DNA of 64,000 nt from an uncultured Clostridia bacterium (GCA_934168365.1 CAKPNJ010000003.1:31055-95054); one strand, 5' to 3'; shown: positions 1-59,875, numbered from the stretch's first letter. A program made the numbers and translations. Notes: generated by a model not told the origin, from the sequence alone.

Positions 1-47
1 TGAGCTGGTATATTGGATTCGAATATAACACAACAGACCAGACACTA

Positions 48-1028
48 ATGGCTTACTATATTACAATAATTATAGGAGCATTAATGATTTACACTATATT
101 TATATATATATTAGCAAAAAATATATCAAATAATATTGTTAATGTATCAAACTCATTAGAAGAAATACTAAAAGGTAAGAACAAAAATAAAGAAAAAATT
201 GCCATAGTTTCTAATGATGAAATTGGAGATTTATCATACTACTATAACAAAATAGCTGAACTTACAGAAGAACATGAAAAAGAATTAAAAGATAATGAAT
301 ATATTATGCAAAGACAAGCACAATTTGCTATTATAGGAGAATTTGCAGGTGGAATTGCACATGATTTAAACTCACCATTATCAGCAATACAGTCAAATGT
401 AACAACTTTAAAGAAATATTTTAATTATAACAGAGTACAAGCTGACCAAGAAGATAAGGCTGAAATTATAAATATCTTAAATAATATGGATAGTAGTATT
501 GAGAGGATGGGTAATACAATAGCAGGTGTACGAAATCAAATTAGAGCAACTGGCGACAAGGATAAAGAGGAATTTTCTCTAAAGGAACTAATAGATGGTA
601 TTGAAATATTATTTGGAAGCATTTTGAGAAAAAATAACTGTCAAATTTTAAATAAAGTTAATGAAAATTATAAAATTTTAGGCGAGAAAAATAAACTTGA
701 CAGAGTTGTAGGAAATGTTATAAAAAATAGTATAGACGCATATCAAGAAATTGGAAAAAATGGAGTAATTGAAGTTAATGCAATAAAAGAAAGTGATAAA
801 TACATCATAACAATAAAAGACGAAGCTGGAGGAGTATCTGATGAAGTAAAAGATACATTATTAAAGGAAATGAAAACGACAAAAAAAGAAAATGGAACTG
901 GTTTCGGACTTTATTATTCTAATACAATTATTGAAAGTAGTTTTAAAGGAAAAATGTATTTTGAAACTACAGAGGGTGTTGGAACGATATTTTATATAGA
1001 ACTACCAATTGATAAGGAGGAAAATTAA
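48..1028 (+). CDS. Sensor histidine kinase. One N-terminal transmembrane helix followed directly by the DHp and catalytic HATPase domains, with no obvious extracytoplasmic sensor domain.
   Basis: H-box HDLNSPL, G1-like DxxGG and G2 GTGFGL motifs. Hydrophobic N-terminus YYITIIIGALMIYTIFIYIL. The reading frame is open to the window edge, so the true start could lie upstream of base 48. Confidence 0.75.
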   Translation: MAYYITIIIGALMIYTIFIYILAKNISNNIVNVSNSLEEILKGKNKNKEKIAIVSNDEIGDLSYYYNKIAELTEEHEKELKDNEYIMQRQAQFAIIGEFAGGIAHDLNSPLSAIQSNVTTLKKYFNYNRVQADQEDKAEIINILNNMDSSIERMGNTIAGVRNQIRATGDKDKEEFSLKELIDGIEILFGSILRKNNCQILNKVNENYKILGEKNKLDRVVGNVIKNSIDAYQEIGKNGVIEVNAIKESDKYIITIKDEAGGVSDEVKDTLLKEMKTTKKENGTGFGLYYSNTIIESSFKGKMYFETTEGVGTIFYIELPIDKEEN

Positions 1029-1029
1029 A

Positions 1030-1998
1030 ATGGAAGAAAATATGTATAAAGAGGCTAGAGTTCTAGTTGTTGATGATATTGAAGAAGTGCTAAGTGCAAC
1101 AAAGAGTACTTTAAAATTTGAAGGAATGAATGTTATAACATATTCAAATCCTAAAGAAGCTTTAGAATTCCTTAAAAATAATAAGATAGATGTATTATTA
1201 CTTGACTTTTTTATGCCCGAAATGAACGGAGATAAATTTATCGAAGAATTAAGAAAATTTAATAATGAAACAGTTATAATATTAAGAACAGGATATTCTG
1301 ATAAAGTTCCACCAATGGAAATGTTGGATTCATTAAATATACAAGGATATATCGATAAATTAAAAGGTGATGATGAACTAGTATTGATGACTAAATCAGC
1401 TATAAAAACATCGTACTTATATAAAAAAATGCTTGAGCAAAAAAATGAGATCAATAAGTTACAATATAGTAATGAATTTTTAGGGAGATTTTTCGGAAAA
1501 ATTTTAGGACAAATAAGAGAAGAATCAATGGTAATTGGTCCATTATCAAATATTTTGGCAAGTACTGAAGGTGTTACTGAAGAAGAAAGAAAAAGATTTG
1601 CTGAAGATATAAATTTAGCAATAGAAAAATTAGTAGAAATGACTAAAACTATGGAGTTTGATAACTTAGGAGAAGTTTCAATAAGTAAATTAGATGAAAC
1701 GTTAAATAATCTTTTAGACATAGAATTAAAAATGAAATATGCTAAAATCAATTTAGAATATAATGAAGATATAATTTTAAAATGTGACTCAAAGATATTG
1801 ATTTATATGCTTGTAGAAATAATAGAAGTTATACTTGAAAACGAAAAAGTAATAAATATCAATATAGATAATTCTACAATAACAATTGAAAATGAAATTA
1901 ACAATGAAGAGTTAATAAATAAATTAAGAAGAATAGCAGAATTTGACAGTAATTTTACAATAAAAACTATAGATAGCAAAATTAGTATAGAAATTTAA
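1030..1998 (+). CDS. Response regulator. N-terminal CheY-like receiver plus a ~200-aa C-terminal domain with no recognisable DNA-binding fold. The C-terminal domain may be a degenerate kinase-like domain.
   Basis: Receiver motifs VLVVDD and LLLDFFMPEMNG. GGAGG at 1013-1019 and ATG at 1030, one base after the kinase stop, so the two genes are translationally coupled. The ORF track begins at an earlier in-frame ATG (1009), which I judge less likely. Confidence 0.7.
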   Translation: MEENMYKEARVLVVDDIEEVLSATKSTLKFEGMNVITYSNPKEALEFLKNNKIDVLLLDFFMPEMNGDKFIEELRKFNNETVIILRTGYSDKVPPMEMLDSLNIQGYIDKLKGDDELVLMTKSAIKTSYLYKKMLEQKNEINKLQYSNEFLGRFFGKILGQIREESMVIGPLSNILASTEGVTEEERKRFAEDINLAIEKLVEMTKTMEFDNLGEVSISKLDETLNNLLDIELKMKYAKINLEYNEDIILKCDSKILIYMLVEIIEVILENEKVININIDNSTITIENEINNEELINKLRRIAEFDSNFTIKTIDSKISIEI

Positions 1999-2010
1999 AA
2001 ATGAATAAGA

Positions 2011-2102
2011 AAAAGGTGACTTTTGGGATGGGGTCAAAAGTCACCTTTTTTGTTTTTATAAAATTTGGGTGCTTTTTGACCCCGTCCCAAAAGTCACCTT
2101 TA
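2011..2102. repeat. ~90-bp palindromic intergenic repeat (copy 1). Perfect hairpin ggtgacttttgggatggggtcaaaagtcacc plus T-run, followed by the inverted partner gaccccgtcccaaaagtcacc. Acts as a bidirectional terminator between convergent genes.
   Basis: Read directly from the sequence. A second copy lies at 50546-50634. Confidence 0.7.
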
Positions 2103-3800: not shown

Positions 3801-5213
3801 GTGGCAAAAATAGAAGTAAATAAACAATTAGAAGATATAAAAAAAGTAGCTTCATTAAATGAAGGAAAAAACTTAAAATATTGCATTTTGACAATGGGAT
3901 GTCAGTTAAATGAGAATGATTCAGAAAAGCTTTGTGGAATGATGGAAAGCATGAATTATACTAAAACCGACAAATTATCTGACGCTGATTTGATTGTGTT
4001 TAATACTTGCTGTGTTCGTGAAAATGCAGAGGATAAGCTATTTGGTAAATTAGGCGAAGTAAAAAAATATAAAGAAGCCAAAGGCACTATAATAGCAATT
4101 GGTGGATGTATGATGCAAGAAAAACATATTGTAGATAAATTAAAACAAAGCTATCCATTTTTTGATATTCTATTTGGTACACACACACTTCAAGAATTTC
4201 CAACAGATTTATACAATGTGTTATGCAACAAAAAAAGAATAGAAGATGTATTAGATATAGATGGAGATGTAATTGAAGGCTTACCAATATCAAGAGAAGA
4301 TAAAATAAAAGCATCGGTAACAATTATGAACGGATGTAACAACTTCTGTAGCTATTGCATAGTACCTTACGTTAGAGGAAGAGAAAGAAGTAGAGAACCA
4401 AGAGATATTATAAACGAAGTAAAAAAATTAGCAGAACAAGGTTACAAAGAAATTACTCTTTTAGGTCAAAATGTTAATTCATATTTAAGAAATGAAAAAG
4501 AAAAAGGTATTGAATTTGAACAATATGAAGGAGTTAACTCATTTGCAACTTTACTAAGAGCTATAAACAAAATAGATGGAATAGAAAGAATTCGTTTTGT
4601 GTCTCCACATCCAAAGGATTTTACAGATGACGTTATAGAAGCAATTAGAGATTGTGAAAAAGTATGTAAATTAGTTCATTTACCACTTCAATCAGGAAGT
4701 AGTGGAATTTTAAAAGTAATGAATAGAAAATACACTAAAGACCAATACTTAAGTTTAGTAGAGAAAATGAAAAATCAAATTCCAAATCTTACTCTTTCTA
4801 CAGATATTATAGTAGGATTTCCAGGTGAGACAGAAGAAGACTTTGAAGCTACTTTAGATGTTGTTTCAAAAGTAAACTTTGAGCAGGTATATATGTTTAT
4901 TTATTCTAGAAGAGTTGGAACTCCGGGCGATAAGATGGAAAATCAAATTCCAGAAGACATTAAACATAAAAGATTTGACAGATTAAAACAATTAGTAGAA
5001 AGTCAAATTTCAGAAAGAAATAAGGAGTATGTGGGAACTGTTCAAAAAATTCTCGTAGAAGGAAGAAGCAAAACAAATGACAATATGCTTACAGGAAGAT
5101 CTGACTCAAATAAAGTAGTAATACTAGAAGGTTGTGATGAGCTGGTAGGCAAAATGGTTGAAATAAAGATAGTTTCAGAACATATGTGGTATTTGAAAGG
5201 GGAAATAGTATAA
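3801..5213 (+). CDS. miaB: tRNA-i6A37 methylthiotransferase, MiaB family. Radical-SAM enzyme with N-terminal MTTase domain and C-terminal TRAM domain.
   Basis: CQLNENDSE, NTCCVRE, radical-SAM CNNFCSYC and a TRAM-like C-terminus. GTG start at 3801 with GGAGGAAAG RBS. Lies upstream of mutS as in other Firmicutes. I cannot exclude the RimO or MtaB subfamilies from sequence alone. Confidence 0.8.
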   Translation: MAKIEVNKQLEDIKKVASLNEGKNLKYCILTMGCQLNENDSEKLCGMMESMNYTKTDKLSDADLIVFNTCCVRENAEDKLFGKLGEVKKYKEAKGTIIAIGGCMMQEKHIVDKLKQSYPFFDILFGTHTLQEFPTDLYNVLCNKKRIEDVLDIDGDVIEGLPISREDKIKASVTIMNGCNNFCSYCIVPYVRGRERSREPRDIINEVKKLAEQGYKEITLLGQNVNSYLRNEKEKGIEFEQYEGVNSFATLLRAINKIDGIERIRFVSPHPKDFTDDVIEAIRDCEKVCKLVHLPLQSGSSGILKVMNRKYTKDQYLSLVEKMKNQIPNLTLSTDIIVGFPGETEEDFEATLDVVSKVNFEQVYMFIYSRRVGTPGDKMENQIPEDIKHKRFDRLKQLVESQISERNKEYVGTVQKILVEGRSKTNDNMLTGRSDSNKVVILEGCDELVGKMVEIKIVSEHMWYLKGEIV

Positions 5214-50002: not shown

Positions 50003-50545
50003 ATGTTTATTTATAACTTAAAAATTGACGGAAATAAATTAGGTAAAATATTTTTAGGAATTCTACTAGGAATTATTATTATAATAACTGCTATTGTTGT
50101 TTACCGTATTTTAGGAAATAATTTTTTCAAAACGAATGATGATACAAATTCTGTGAAAGTTCAAGAACTCACAGTTAGCAATTATACCAATGTACTAAAA
50201 ACTGTGCATGATAATATAGACGATTATGTTGGTATGAGAGTAAGCTTTTCCGGATACATACATAGAATGGTAGATTTTAAAGAAAATCAATTTGTTTTGG
50301 CTAGAGATATGGTTATATCTTCTGATTTACAAACAGTTATTGTAGGTTTTTTATGTGAATGTGACGATATAAAGCAATATGCTGATAAAACTTGGATTCA
50401 AATTGAAGGAGAAATTATAAAAGGCGATTATCACGGATATATGCCAATATTAAAAATTACAAAGATACAAAAAATTGACAAACCTTCTGACGAATACGTT
50501 TATCCACCTGATGCTGCATTTATTCCAACATCTGCAATATTTTAA
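50003..50545 (+). CDS. Hypothetical membrane-anchored protein: one N-terminal transmembrane helix and a ~140-aa extracytoplasmic domain.
   Basis: ORF. An AAAGGTG RBS favours Met13 (50003) over the track's start at 49967. Confidence 0.45.
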   Translation: MFIYNLKIDGNKLGKIFLGILLGIIIIITAIVVYRILGNNFFKTNDDTNSVKVQELTVSNYTNVLKTVHDNIDDYVGMRVSFSGYIHRMVDFKENQFVLARDMVISSDLQTVIVGFLCECDDIKQYADKTWIQIEGEIIKGDYHGYMPILKITKIQKIDKPSDEYVYPPDAAFIPTSAIF

Positions 50546-50634
50546 GGTGACTTTTGGGACGGGGTCAAAAGTCACCTTTTCTCTTTTTCAAATTGGGACA
50601 AGGTGCTTTTTGACCCCGTCCCAAAAATCATCTT
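50546..50634. repeat. ~90-bp palindromic intergenic repeat (copy 2), homologous to 2011-2102. Bidirectional terminator between convergent genes.
   Basis: ggtgacttttgggacggggtcaaaagtcacc ... tgctttttgaccccgtcccaaaaatca. Confidence 0.7.
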
Positions 50635-51722
50635 TCAAATATAGATTTAAATACTCCTTTATCAATAAATGTTGCGAATATATTTTTTAATATTATTAGT
50701 ATTATTGGTCCTATAAACATACCAATAACTCCTATGAATTTAAATCCTGTATACATTGCAATTAAAGTAAATATTGGATGTATACCTATTTTTCCACTTA
50801 CCATTCTAGGTTCTATAAATTGTCTTACTACAGACATTATAATCCATAAAACTATAATCCATATTGCTAATGTAAAATCTCCTGAACATGCTGATATTAC
50901 AGCCCATGGTATCATAAATGTTCCTGAACCAAATATAGGTAATAGATCCACAAATCCTATAATCAAGGCCATTAACAATGGGTATTGAACATTCAAACCT
51001 GCAAAATGAAATATATATAGTCCTATTAAGCAAATAACAAATGATATAAATACTAAAGTAACTTCCGCTTTTAAATAGCCACCCAATGACTTCGTAAGTT
51101 CTTTTATATGAATTCCTATTTTTTTAACCCAAGTTTCTGGCATATGATGTTCTAATTGATCTATCATGTATACTTTATCTACACAAATGAAATATAATGC
51201 TAATAATGTAACAACTGTATATACTCCTATTGTTGGTATAGATGTCAAAAAGTTAATTGCGTTTGTCAATGCTGATTTAGCCCAGTTTGTTAAATTTCCT
51301 AAAAAATCAAGTGAAGACTGTTGAATGGTTGACATTATGTTGTCTGGTATTTTTAAACTTTCAAAATCAACTGAAGCTATTAGATTTTGTACTAATTGAT
51401 AGCCTTTTTCAAAATATTCGTTTAAATTTGTAAGTAAGTTAGACGCTTCTGTTATCAATGTTATTGATACCCACACTAAAAGTCCCGCTATTATAATTAT
51501 TGCAATTATGAATATTATAATAGAACTCGTTTTTCGTCTCAGTTTGGTTTTTCTCATTATAAATCTAATGCATGGTTCTAATAATAGTGAAATAATGAAT
51601 GCTACTAAAAATGGCATATAAAAAATTACAAGTTTAAATCCTAGATAAAAGCCAAGAACAGATAGTGCCAATATTAGTAGGTTTTTTAGTACTTTTCCCC
51701 AATAATTCATATCTATAATCAT
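50628..51722 (-). CDS. AI-2E family transporter (PerM/UPF0118 permease).
   Basis: 8-transmembrane topology and the family-typical C-terminal region. Confidence 0.65.
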   Translation of the reverse strand: MIIDMNYWGKVLKNLLILALSVLGFYLGFKLVIFYMPFLVAFIISLLLEPCIRFIMRKTKLRRKTSSIIIFIIAIIIIAGLLVWVSITLITEASNLLTNLNEYFEKGYQLVQNLIASVDFESLKIPDNIMSTIQQSSLDFLGNLTNWAKSALTNAINFLTSIPTIGVYTVVTLLALYFICVDKVYMIDQLEHHMPETWVKKIGIHIKELTKSLGGYLKAEVTLVFISFVICLIGLYIFHFAGLNVQYPLLMALIIGFVDLLPIFGSGTFMIPWAVISACSGDFTLAIWIIVLWIIMSVVRQFIEPRMVSGKIGIHPIFTLIAMYTGFKFIGVIGMFIGPIILIILKNIFATFIDKGVFKSIFER

Positions 51723-56999: not shown

Positions 57000-57006
57000 A
57001 CATAAT

Positions 57007-57045
57007 AAAACATGCCAAAATTCTCCGTCCCTATTGGCATGTTTT
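57007..57045 (-). terminator. Terminator of uvrA. The hairpin is usable in both directions.
   Basis: aaaacatgccaa ... ttggcatgtttt. Confidence 0.6.
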
Positions 57046-57049
57046 TATA

Positions 57050-59875
57050 TTATTCTAAATATTTCTTTAAAAATTTTCCAGTATAACTTTGCTCATTTCT
57101 TGTAATTTGTTCTGGTGTTCCTACTGCAATTATTTGTCCACCTTTTTCTCCACCTTCTGGTCCTAAGTCTATAATGTAATCAGCTGTTTTTATGAGGTCT
57201 AAATTGTGTTCAATTACAATTATACTATTTCCTGTGTCAACTAATCTTTGTAAAATATCAACCAATTTATGAACATCTGCTATATGAAGTCCTGTTGTAG
57301 GCTCATCTAAAATATATAATGTTTTCCCTGTTGCTTTTTTAGATAGTTCTGTTGCTAATTTAACACGTTGTGCTTCTCCACCTGATAAAGTAGTTGAAGG
57401 TTGCCCTAACTTAATATATCCAAGTCCAACATCATATAAGGTTTGAATTTTTGATTTGATTTTAGGTATGTTTTCGAAAAACTTCAAAGCTTCTTCTACA
57501 GTCATATCAAGAACATCACTAATAGTTTTGCCTTTATATTTAACTTCAAGTGTTTCTCTATTATATCTTTTTCCTTTACATACTTCACATGGTACATATA
57601 TATCTGGTAAAAAGTGCATTTCTATTTTTAAAACACCATCTCCAGAACATGCCTCACATCTACCACCTGCAACATTAAAGCTAAACCTGCCTTTGTCATA
57701 GCCTCTCATTTTAGCCTCTTGTGTTGCAGCAAAAATGTCTCTAATAACATCAAATACTCCTGTATATGTTGCTGGGTTTGAACGTGGAGTTCTTCCTATT
57801 GGTGATTGATCGATATTTATAATTTTATCAACATTTTCTAGTCCTTTTATTTCTTTGCATTTTCCTGGTTTTTCATTTGAACCATATATTTCTTTTGCTA
57901 CTGTTTTATATAATATTTCATTAACTAGTGTACTCTTGCCTGAACCTGAAACACCTGTAACGCAAATAAATTGTCCTAATGGAAATTTTACATTTATGTT
58001 TTTCAAGTTGTGTTCTGTTGCACCTTTGACTTCAATTGCCTTTCCATTAGATTTTCTTCTTTTTTTAGGTACTAAAATTTGTTTTTTGCCACTTAAATAT
58101 TGTCCTGTAATAGATTCTGGAACTAATTTGATTTCTTCAGCAGTACCTTGTGCAATTACCTTTCCACCATGCACACCTGCGCCTGGTCCAATATCTATAA
58201 TTTGGTCTGCTGCATACATAGTATCTTCATCATGCTCAACAACTAAAACAGTATTTCCTAAATCTCTTAATTTTCTAAGTGTTGCTAATAGCTTTTCATT
58301 ATCTCTTTGGTGTAACCCAATACTTGGTTCGTCTAATATATATAACACTCCTGTTAGTCCTGAACCAATTTGAGTTGCTAAACGAATACGTTGTGCTTCA
58401 CCACCTGATAAACTTCCTGCACTTCTAGATAATGTTAAATACTCTAACCCAACATCAAGTAAAAATTGTAAACGTTTATTTAATTCTTTTAGTATTTGAT
58501 CTGCAATCATTTTATCTTTGTTGTTTAATTGTAATGAATTTAAGAAATCTTTTATTTTATCAATAGACATATCTGTTAATTCGTTTATGTTTTTATCTCC
58601 AACTTTTACAGATAAGCTCTCTTTTTTTAATCTTGCCCCATGACAAGTTTGACATGCACTTTCACTCATGTACATTTCATAAAAGTCTCTCATACCTTGA
58701 GATTTTGTTTCATTATACCTTCTATCTAATGTTGGTAAAACACCTTCAAATGGACTTGTAAATTTTCTTGTTCCAGCATAAGATGTATATTCAAAATCAA
58801 TTGCTTCATCGCCTGTACCATATAAAATTTTTTCTAAAAACCATCTTGGCAATTTTTTAATAGGTACATCTTTTATTTCTACTCCGTAATGTTTGGCAAT
58901 ACTTTCAAAATACATTTTTGCCATTGTATCGCCTTTTTTCATTGTACTAGCTCCAAAAGCTTTAATTCCATCATATAGAGTTTTATTTTTGTCAGGAACA
59001 ATTAAGTCTTCGTCCATTTTCATTAAGTAACCAATACCTGTACAAGTTGGACAAGCACCAAATGGATTATTAAAAGAAAACATTCTTGGTGTTAGTTCTT
59101 CTATGCTTATATTACAGTCTGGACAAGCATAGTTTTGACTATATAATATTTCCTTATCACCTGGAGTATCTATTACAACTAAATTATTTGCATATTTTAA
59201 AGCAGTTTCAACTGACTCAGTTAGTCTTGTTCTAATTTCTTCTTTTACAACTAATCTATCAACTACTAGCTCTATATTATGTTTTTTCTTTCTATCAATT
59301 TCTATGTCATCTGTTAATTCATAAACCTCTCCATCAACACGTACACGAACAAAGCCTTCTTTTTGAAAGTCTTGTAATAGTTTTGTATATTCACCCTTTT
59401 TTCCACGAACAACAGGCGCTAAAACTTGAATTCTAGTACCTTCTTCTAAACTCATAACACTATCTATAATTTGGTCAATAGTTTGTTTTTCAATTTTCTT
59501 ACCACAGTTTGGACAATATGGTACACCTATACGTGCATATAATAAACGAATATAATCATATATTTCTGTAACTGTTCCAACTGTTGAACGTGGATTTCTA
59601 GATGTAGTTTTTTGGTCTATTGAAATCGCTGGTGATAAGCCTTCAATTGATTCAACATCTGGTTTTTCCATTAGTCCTAAGAATTGTCTAGCATAAGATG
59701 ATAAACTTTCTACATATCTTCTTTGACCTTCTGCATACAAAGTATCAAATGCTAACGAAGATTTACCAGAACCAGAAAGCCCTGTAATTACTACTAATTT
59801 ATCTCTTGGAATTTCTATATTTATATCTTTTAAATTATGTTCTTTTGCTCCCTTAATAATAATGCTATCTTGCAT
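57050..59875 (-). CDS. uvrA: Excinuclease ABC subunit A.
   Basis: Two ABC ATPase modules ([22 protein letters not shown]) and zinc fingers. Confidence 0.97.

Follow-up and report, generated by a model that had tools for sequence, protein, structure and literature searches.

The window analysed here is the whole 64,000-nucleotide stretch of DNA from an uncultured Clostridia bacterium. In it, a 31-nt hairpin unit occurs four times, in two inverted pairs (positions 2015–2098 and 50546–50632), and both of these doublets are located between the stop codons of convergent genes. The stops flanking copy 1 correspond to positions 1996–1998 (upstream) and 2100–2102 (downstream). Copy 2 spans the gap from stop to stop, with the upstream stop at 50543–50545 and the downstream stop (50628–50630) falling within its second unit. 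The two doublets are composed of the following features.

2015–2045, + strand: REP-like unit A of copy 1; no mismatch to the pattern; hairpin fold of −21 kcal/mol, z −5
2046–2067, no strand: spacer of copy 1, 22 nt, starting with the T tract TTTTTTGTTTTT (2046–2057)
2068–2098, − strand: REP-like unit B of copy 1, inverted; two mismatches to the pattern; pairs with unit A
50546–50576, + strand: REP-like unit A of copy 2; exact match; the TAA stop at 50543–50545 lies immediately 5'
50577–50601, no strand: spacer of copy 2, 25 nt, starting with the T tract TTTTCTCTTTTT (50577–50588)
50602–50632, − strand: REP-like unit B of copy 2, inverted; core match at 50608–50626

Each unit consists of a 10-bp stem (GGTGACTTTT/AAAAGTCACC) that encloses an 11-nt loop, GGGAYGGGGTC, which reads GGGATGGGGTC in copy 1. 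The 31-nt unit pattern GGTGACTTTTGGGAYGGGGTCAAAAGTCACC was found at 2015–2045 (+), 2068–2098 (−, with two mismatches) and 50546–50576 (+), and gave no match across 100 shuffles. The 19-nt core TTTTGGGAYGGGGTCAAAA matched four times in the window (2021+, 2074−, 50552+ and 50608−), with 0.03 matches expected by chance, and the fourth unit (50602–50632, −) reads GGTGCTTTTTGACCCCGTCCCAAAAATCATC on the + strand. With one mismatch allowed, we identified no further occurrence of the loop in the window beyond the four units. Because the stem is palindromic, the two orientations of a unit can be distinguished by the loop alone. The inner arm of the − unit is represented by the variant GGTGCTTTTT at both window loci, unit B of copy 1 included, and the outer arm of unit B in copy 2 (AAAAATCATC) overlaps the stop (50628–50630) and the last codon of the minus-strand gene at 50628–51722.

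Taken as a whole, either doublet forms a single long hairpin (copy 1: −60.4 kcal/mol, z = −12.8; copy 2: −58.6 kcal/mol, z = −10.9), and the left units also fold singly as hairpins (z −4 to −5). These folds bear out the first-pass annotation, which had described a hairpin followed by a T-run within an element able to fold as a whole. Its placement of two near-identical elements at unrelated loci between convergent stops also agrees with the unit matches, with the ORF ends and with the flanks, which show no similarity between the copies beyond the ~100 bp of the element. The near-identity, however, holds for the units and not for the spacers, which have diverged, and identity between the copies amounts to 84% over 102 nt; the spacers measure 22 and 25 nt rather than the ~25–30 bp that had been claimed. 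The G+C-rich core is, as had been remarked, atypical for its surroundings, given that the G+C content of the window is 28.7%. The source is a low-GC, Clostridium-like gut species that is frequent in human metagenomes. No direct repeats corresponding to a target-site duplication were identified at the borders of either copy.

Contigs encoding proteins identical to those of the window are 97–99% identical to it in the flanks, and comparisons within the species (contigs and loci are referred to by our L numbers) revealed that the doublets are polymorphic for presence and absence. At locus 2, an ordinary bidirectional terminator takes the place of the doublet in 14 of the 15 other same-species contigs, and four of these 14 encode an AI-2E-family protein identical to that of the window. 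In ten strains (L128–L137), a canonical bidirectional terminator of 59 nt, AAAAAGCTAGACCTCGAAGGTCTAGCTTTTT, is located between the same two genes, and homology to the window ends precisely at both stop codons. The doublet is found in one independent assembly (Logan ERR7738607, L147), the contig of which ends inside it. Relative to the terminator allele, 59 nt are replaced from stop to stop, the stops change from TAG to TAA and from TAA to TGA, and one linked SNP adjoins the element. The target-site duplication that the first-pass annotation had proposed to look for is thus not seen here either: the comparison of filled and unfilled sites shows a replacement, not a duplication.

At locus 1, the doublet is present in the window and in L150 (same run, ERR7738607), and the L151 contig stops within the element. 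In L010 and L139, this position is occupied by a single unit with a ‘−’ loop plus a 10-nt ‘tail’, and a decayed unit is found in the L001-type strains, in which the upstream genes are different. What separates the doublet from the monomer is a stretch of 53 nt with the direct repeats GGTGACTTTT and GGTGCTTTTT at its borders, a difference such as slippage would produce.

We also observed that the gene set upstream of locus 1 varies between strains, being represented by a histidine kinase with a response regulator, by YkuD or by an acyltransferase. When window positions 1–2090 are compared with L001–L009 (about 4465–4621), homology to the window sets in again precisely where the element ends on the right, and the repeat forms the border of this strain-variable region. 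In one strain of a sister species (~90% identity), a DDE_Tnp_1 gene is inserted between rpmE and miaB (L006 6433–7782); it is unrelated to the repeat.

A third doublet was identified 5.4 kb upstream of the window start, between tandem genes (L139 1674/1724, equivalent to L138 5700/5751), and the copies seen in the window species thus correspond to three loci in ~75 kb. The three doublets have in common the inner arm GGTGCTTTTT, a T-rich start of the spacer and their orientation, and these shared features indicate that the doublet, not the single unit, was copied. In the JGI metagenomes, the exact unit was found in two contigs only, both from the window's own neighbourhood.

Species-representative genomes (one per species) were scanned with the pattern TTTTGRGAYGGGGTCAAAA, which yielded at least 117 stretches and at least 164 exact cores, mostly from MAGs of low-GC Clostridia. 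Hairpins, defined by at least four of six Watson–Crick pairs at the six stem positions left free in the pattern, accommodate 147 of the 164 cores listed. The remaining 17 belong almost entirely to unrelated taxa (Psychrobacter, Nitrospira, a SAR11 genome and others), and these stemless cores provide a built-in negative control. Among the matches listed, at least 156 units with no more than two mismatches are found in 23 low-GC ‘Clostridium/Clostridia’ (and two ‘Bacilli’) MAGs, with a maximum of 20 units per MAG in the 82 kb fetched.

The predominant stem is genome-specific (GATGTT, GGTGTT or GCTGTT, and GGTGAC in the window). In the units listed, the loop is constant and the stems vary between species by compensatory changes, although the loop was preset by the search pattern and its invariance is therefore partly built in. 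Compensatory double changes were found at all six free stem pairs (79 cells), a count that none of 500 shuffles reached. Stem cells are paired in 97.5% of cases as compared with at most 59% with slid partners; this test kept units with at least four of six pairs, which inflates the percentage paired and not the double-change count. The unit consensus begins with G-N-T-G, which is base-paired, and the tetranucleotide GTAG at the foot of the hairpin is absent from the units. Neither a conserved target sequence nor a duplication was identified at the borders of the units examined. Stem mismatches, which served as a test for a function at the RNA or single-strand level, showed no strand bias (G.T 21 vs A.C 22).

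The arrangement of the units is also regular. All 36 close pairs listed (less than 150 nt apart) are oriented ‘+ then −’, with a core-to-core spacing of 21–116 nt (median 76). The median distance from a unit to a gene 3' end is 12 nt, with many units located at the stop codon, and the units facing a gene start are often found 13–25 nt upstream of it, just before the ribosome-binding site. Their intergenic contexts are tandem in 46 cases, convergent in 12 and divergent in two, and the units occur in both orientations relative to genes. Different species share units at orthologous sites; examples are found upstream of dnaK and around the RAYT gene described below.

Searches of Rfam at gathering thresholds returned no match at the loci, and permissive searches gave generic hairpin or miRNA-precursor matches only (at most 33 bits vs thresholds of at least 42). 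No similar DNA was found in the PLSDB plasmids. Viral contigs contained two core matches, both without the hairpin stem, which argues that the family is not phage-borne; it is chromosomal. A search of the literature for the loop sequence retrieved unrelated human primers and no bacterial context.

Several further observations were made on individual units. Three fall within long ORFs, whose reading frame continues through them (L033 269–299, L061 7084–7114 and L052 3254–3284): the TrmFO-like ORF of L033 and the ORF of L061 each gain the peptide DVFWDGVKKH, and the very long ORF of L052 gains LFFGTGSKN. The 19-nt core is also present in high-GC Coriobacteriia, namely Collinsella sp. An7 (L034 7136, L055 2898 and L117 1657) and Enorma massiliensis (L021 2204). 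There it forms hairpins with very different, compensating stems, such as TGACTCATTTT...AAAATGAGTCA, and no Y1 gene was found near these cores in the 8 kb fetched. The occurrence of the same core in Clostridia and Coriobacteriia indicates that the loop is conserved across phyla.

The loop was observed to flip between orthologous units while the palindromic stem remains unmoved, as in L123 6681 (‘−’) and the syntenic L079 1618 (‘+’), for which the loci were aligned, and at locus 1 between the window (2015–2098) and the monomer L010 4587, which has a ‘−’ loop. After many of the units, part of one stem arm is repeated in direct orientation as a ‘tail’, for example AAAAGTCACC-CAAAGTTACC and AAAAAACACC-AAAAAACATC. 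Such tails are located at L010 4606–4621, L139 9093–9108 and 1755–1765, L126 5260–5270 and L140 3772–3817, and also in L096, L105 and L125; the L140 tail belongs to a 46-nt inverted repeat flanking the RAYT gene. The tail may be a recognition or cleavage-guide element.

Several of the stretches feature two units ~860 bp apart with one ORF between them. We identified seven related loci at which a Y1/HUH transposase of ~230–260 aa is flanked by inverted units (L054, L073, L079, L123, L140, L153 and L155), and this is the sole gene that was found between such unit ends. The proteins flanked by units in L054, L073, L079 and L123 are ~258 aa in length. The ‘+’ unit lies to the left and the ‘−’ unit to the right in L054, L073 and L079, as in the short doublets, and the upstream loop is flipped in L123. 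The flanking inverted repeats of the other three loci measure 46 nt (L140, 96% complementary), 36 nt (L155, 89%) and 53 nt (L153, 91%). These three homologues were retrieved by protein and not selected by the DNA motif, and they too have inverted hairpin units on both sides, with the related loop GGGGACGGAGS.

The ~258-aa proteins of the relatives score 52 bits with Pfam Y1_Tnp (cut-off 23) and 78.4 bits with the NCBIfam model for REP-associated tyrosine transposases (REP_Tyr_transpos), just under its cut-off of 80, as compared with 21.6 bits for the IS200 model. The sole match of the transposase profile among PDB sequences was 4ER8 (TnpA_REP). This structure was also the best match to the predicted fold (pLDDT 88; E 8.5e-7, target TM 0.73), followed by the ISDra2 and IS608 transposases. 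The HUH histidines H63 and H65 and the tyrosine Y124 are invariant in 47 homologues. A C-terminal extension of ~110 aa is predicted to be all-helical, mostly at a pLDDT of more than 80; a Pfam search gave no match to it and did not confirm a helix-turn-helix nature. Together, the profile scores and the predicted fold class the transposase of the relatives as RAYT type rather than IS200 type.

The order ABC-F gene then transposase gene is kept in at least five species, with ABC-F proteins that are 87–94% identical, which points to a vertically inherited single-locus gene; synteny was also seen between the RAYT loci of L054 and L073. For many RAYT homologues, the only known contigs are ~1 kb long.

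In the window species itself, tblastn identified no Y1 transposase in the 64-kb window or in the same-species loci L001–L010, L138 and L139. Protein and profile searches, and the route through the syntenic ABC-F gene, led to RAYT loci in other species only, where the units have other stems or loops. In addition, two homologue searches of the protein collection revealed no RAYT cluster as abundant as the other proteins of the window species. The cognate enzyme of this species may be absent, rare or divergent.

Another hairpin was observed in the window at 57005–57050, at the 3' end of a 941-aa gene (57050–59875, −). It is composed of an 11-bp stem (AACATGCCAAA/TTTGGCATGTT) and a 15-nt loop containing CCGTCCC, followed by a T tract (fold z −4 to −6). 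On the minus strand it reads GGGACGGAG, which is the loop type adjoining the RAYTs of L140, L153 and L155. This hairpin may be a diverged relative of the repeat family.

Because a T tract follows unit A, the + strand agrees with the terminator consensus at both loci, where terminator-like sites with tails were identified at 2009–2051 and 50544–50578. The − strand fails the same consensus scan at both loci; the scan admits loops of up to 8 nt, so that the 11-nt loop falls outside it. At locus 1, TTTTTCTT comes after the reverse complement of unit A on this strand, and the tail at locus 2 is poor. Based on these sequence features and on the position at locus 2, where other strains have a terminator, the element is likely to be a terminator for the upstream + strand gene, and it may act in both directions. 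Most units of the relatives are located between tandem genes, often directly upstream of the ribosome-binding site, and termination is therefore not a defining property of the family. Classical REPs shield the mRNA upstream of them against 3' exonucleases, and RNase III acts on long perfect RNA hairpins.

The unit family, combined with the inverted flanking of a RAYT-type gene in the relatives, points to a REP/REPIN-RAYT system of TIRYT-like character. We put at roughly 80% the probability that each doublet is a REPIN, that is, a non-autonomous member of a family that is dispersed in low-GC Clostridia and tied to a RAYT/TIRYT-class Y1 transposase. The first-pass annotation had argued for a dispersed element over independently evolved terminators, and this view is strengthened both by the more than 150 units in 23 related MAGs and by the transposase that such units flank in the relatives. 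Of its label ‘REP/MITE-like’, the REP side is retained in the form of REPIN doublets, and the MITE side, in the DDE-type sense, falls with the missing target-site duplication.

Based on the mechanism of the IS200/IS605 and TnpA_REP enzymes (PMC6006769), we hypothesise that a RAYT/TIRYT-class Y1 (HUH) transposase, encoded elsewhere, would recognise the folded hairpin on single-stranded DNA, with the invariant loop GGGACGGGGTC, including its GGGGTCA motif, as the likely specificity determinant. The enzyme would cut and rejoin the DNA and so mobilise the doublet in trans into intergenic sites, most of them just past the end of a gene. In the lineage of the window species, where a T tract directly follows unit A, each copy would deliver a ready-made hairpin-plus-T-tract, and an inserted copy would probably end and stabilise the transcript of the upstream + strand gene. 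Since Y1-type insertion adds DNA without deletion, the stop-to-stop replacement at locus 2 is not explained by insertion alone; possible routes are an insertion with a subsequent deletion, recombination of a short tract from a lineage outside the sample or hairpin template switching.

An alternative that we regard as rather unlikely, though worth weighing, is that the repeats are orphans. No transposase would then be active in the species now, and the observed differences would stem from strain recombination, arm slippage or hairpin template switching. Such a history would be in accordance with the searched sequence of the species, in which RAYT was not found, and with the exact stop-to-stop replacement and adjacent linked SNP at locus 2. 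At locus 1, it would also fit the direct repeats GGTGACTTTT and GGTGCTTTTT that bound the doublet/monomer deletion, the decayed unit of the L001-type strains and the start of the strain-variable upstream region exactly at the element. However, three doublets at unrelated loci with unrelated flanks must at some time have been copied to new sites, the transposase genes of the relatives are intact with invariant catalytic residues, and the absence of RAYT from the species rests on incomplete genome sampling.

It is improbable, in our judgement, that the hairpin is primarily a host-selected structured RNA or DNA site bound by a cellular factor, for instance for mRNA 3' protection or nucleoid organisation, with a secondary link to the transposase. 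An invariant loop on drifting stems would be expected of such a site, but this invariance is partly built into the search, and the independently found transposase relatives have a different loop. The core with other stems in Coriobacteriia, where the 8 kb fetched contained no Y1 gene, the units conserved between species at orthologous sites (dnaK upstream, RAYT) and the replacement of a terminator at locus 2 could also be accounted for by a host function. Against this, the units occur in either orientation relative to genes and in frame inside coding regions, their mismatches have no strand bias and no Rfam family matches at threshold.

The hairpin and T tract at convergent gene ends are what ordinary intrinsic terminators, alike by chance or convergent selection, would show, yet we give this reading almost no credence: an identical 11-nt loop and 10-bp stem recur at unlinked loci (0/100 shuffles), the inverted second unit lacks a T tract of its own, and the more than 150 relatives among the matches listed, many in 5' leader positions, refute it. 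Equally far-fetched is a DDE-type MITE with terminal inverted repeats and target-site duplication, which the overall shape of two inverted ends around a short spacer recalls, since the borders carry no direct repeats, each ‘end’ is itself a hairpin and the sole gene between such ends is a Y1/HUH transposase. A segmental duplication is excluded by the confinement of similarity to ~100 bp and by the unrelated flanks of the two loci; in line with the first-pass view, the element is also not limited to two copies, the third lying just outside the window.

Returning to the REPIN-RAYT reading, a bolder version of it can be proposed, but we do so tentatively and consider it doubtful as a whole. It holds that these repeats constitute an undescribed, abundant REPIN population driven by a C-terminally extended RAYT class (TIRYT, subclass 2.1), with a specificity that would lie in the 11-nt loop, from Clostridia to Coriobacteriia, and not in a GTAG-tagged stem, and that they also act as a portable terminator cassette overwriting the resident terminator from stop to stop. 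If this reading holds, the REPIN-RAYT model, which has been studied almost only in Proteobacteria, would extend to Gram-positive gut anaerobes by way of a well-defined family that is tied to the long RAYT class in low-GC Clostridia, the invariant loop and free stems would offer a simple test case for hairpin reading by Y1 transposases, and such repeats could replace ordinary terminators. The element is of a known kind, and its populations are scarcely documented in Firmicutes; the literature contains a long RAYT class without REP partners, and it is to such a class that the present family appears to be tied. Also, the REPIN breaks short-read assemblies at its sites, as in the L147 and L151 contigs that end inside it, and these breaks, together with in-frame insertion into genes, bear on MAG quality and annotation.

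Among known systems, the Correia repeats of Neisseria and the BOX and RUP repeats of Streptococcus are small dispersed intergenic hairpin repeats that are co-transcribed with their neighbours and can end or process transcripts. Correia and RUP have terminal inverted repeats and target duplications, and BOX is modular. None of these is known to have a Y1 transposase partner, and their sequences are unrelated to the window repeat. The IS200/IS605 elements (IS608 and ISDra2) share with the present system a Y1/HUH transposase and the lack of target-site duplication, and their enzymes recognise subterminal hairpins on single-stranded DNA. Unlike in these elements, the relatives' protein scores 21.6 bits with the IS200 model vs 78.4 with the REP-associated model, its gene is located at one syntenic locus and not in many copies, and the short repeats far outnumber the gene.

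The combination of units, doublets and a flanked, syntenic RAYT-type gene is characteristic of REP/REPIN-RAYT systems (PMC6006769, PMC3116915, PMC3337134 and the RAREFAN preprint). According to PMC3116915 and 10.1101/2022.05.22.493013, the doublets known as REPINs are mobilised by RAYTs that are present in single copy and inherited vertically. As in the Proteobacterial REP/BIME and REPIN-RAYT systems (Escherichia coli TnpA_REP, Pseudomonas fluorescens SBW25), the repeat is a short palindrome of extragenic DNA, present either alone or in inverted doublets that form a long hairpin, and like classical REPs the units lie mostly behind gene ends. The transposase of the relatives is likewise flanked by inverted repeats at a locus that is syntenic between species, and its predicted fold is closest to 4ER8. 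The system differs from Proteobacterial REPs in having no GTAG tag, the foot of the stem being a paired GNTG, and in that the invariant part is the 11-nt loop and not the stem. In contrast to Proteobacterial RAYTs, the transposase is ~230–260 aa long with a predicted helical C-terminal extension of ~110 aa, the hosts are low-GC Firmicutes, and the enzyme was not found in the searched sequence of the window species.

The inverted repeats on either side of TIRYT genes share the motif GGGGWSAS (De Nocera 2013, PMC3733652), and the units described here contain GGGGTCAA, which agrees with this motif at 7/8 positions. The TIRYT/TIRtron class has been equated with Y1 subclass 2.1, beside whose genes no REP-like sequences were found (Quentin 2018, PMC6006769). 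Group 1 RAYTs, to which TIRYT/subclass 2.1 probably corresponds, have been reported in Clostridia with a weak repeat association (Bertels 2017, PMC5581495). The RAYT of the relatives recalls the TIRYT/TIRtron class in its long protein and in its GGGGTCAA-containing inverted repeats: it is a longer RAYT-like protein with a C-terminal extension, and the flanking inverted repeats, as in TIRtrons, can be self-complementary and can form dimers. Unlike in the reports on subclass 2.1 and Group 1, the flanking units here belong to an abundant dispersed family.
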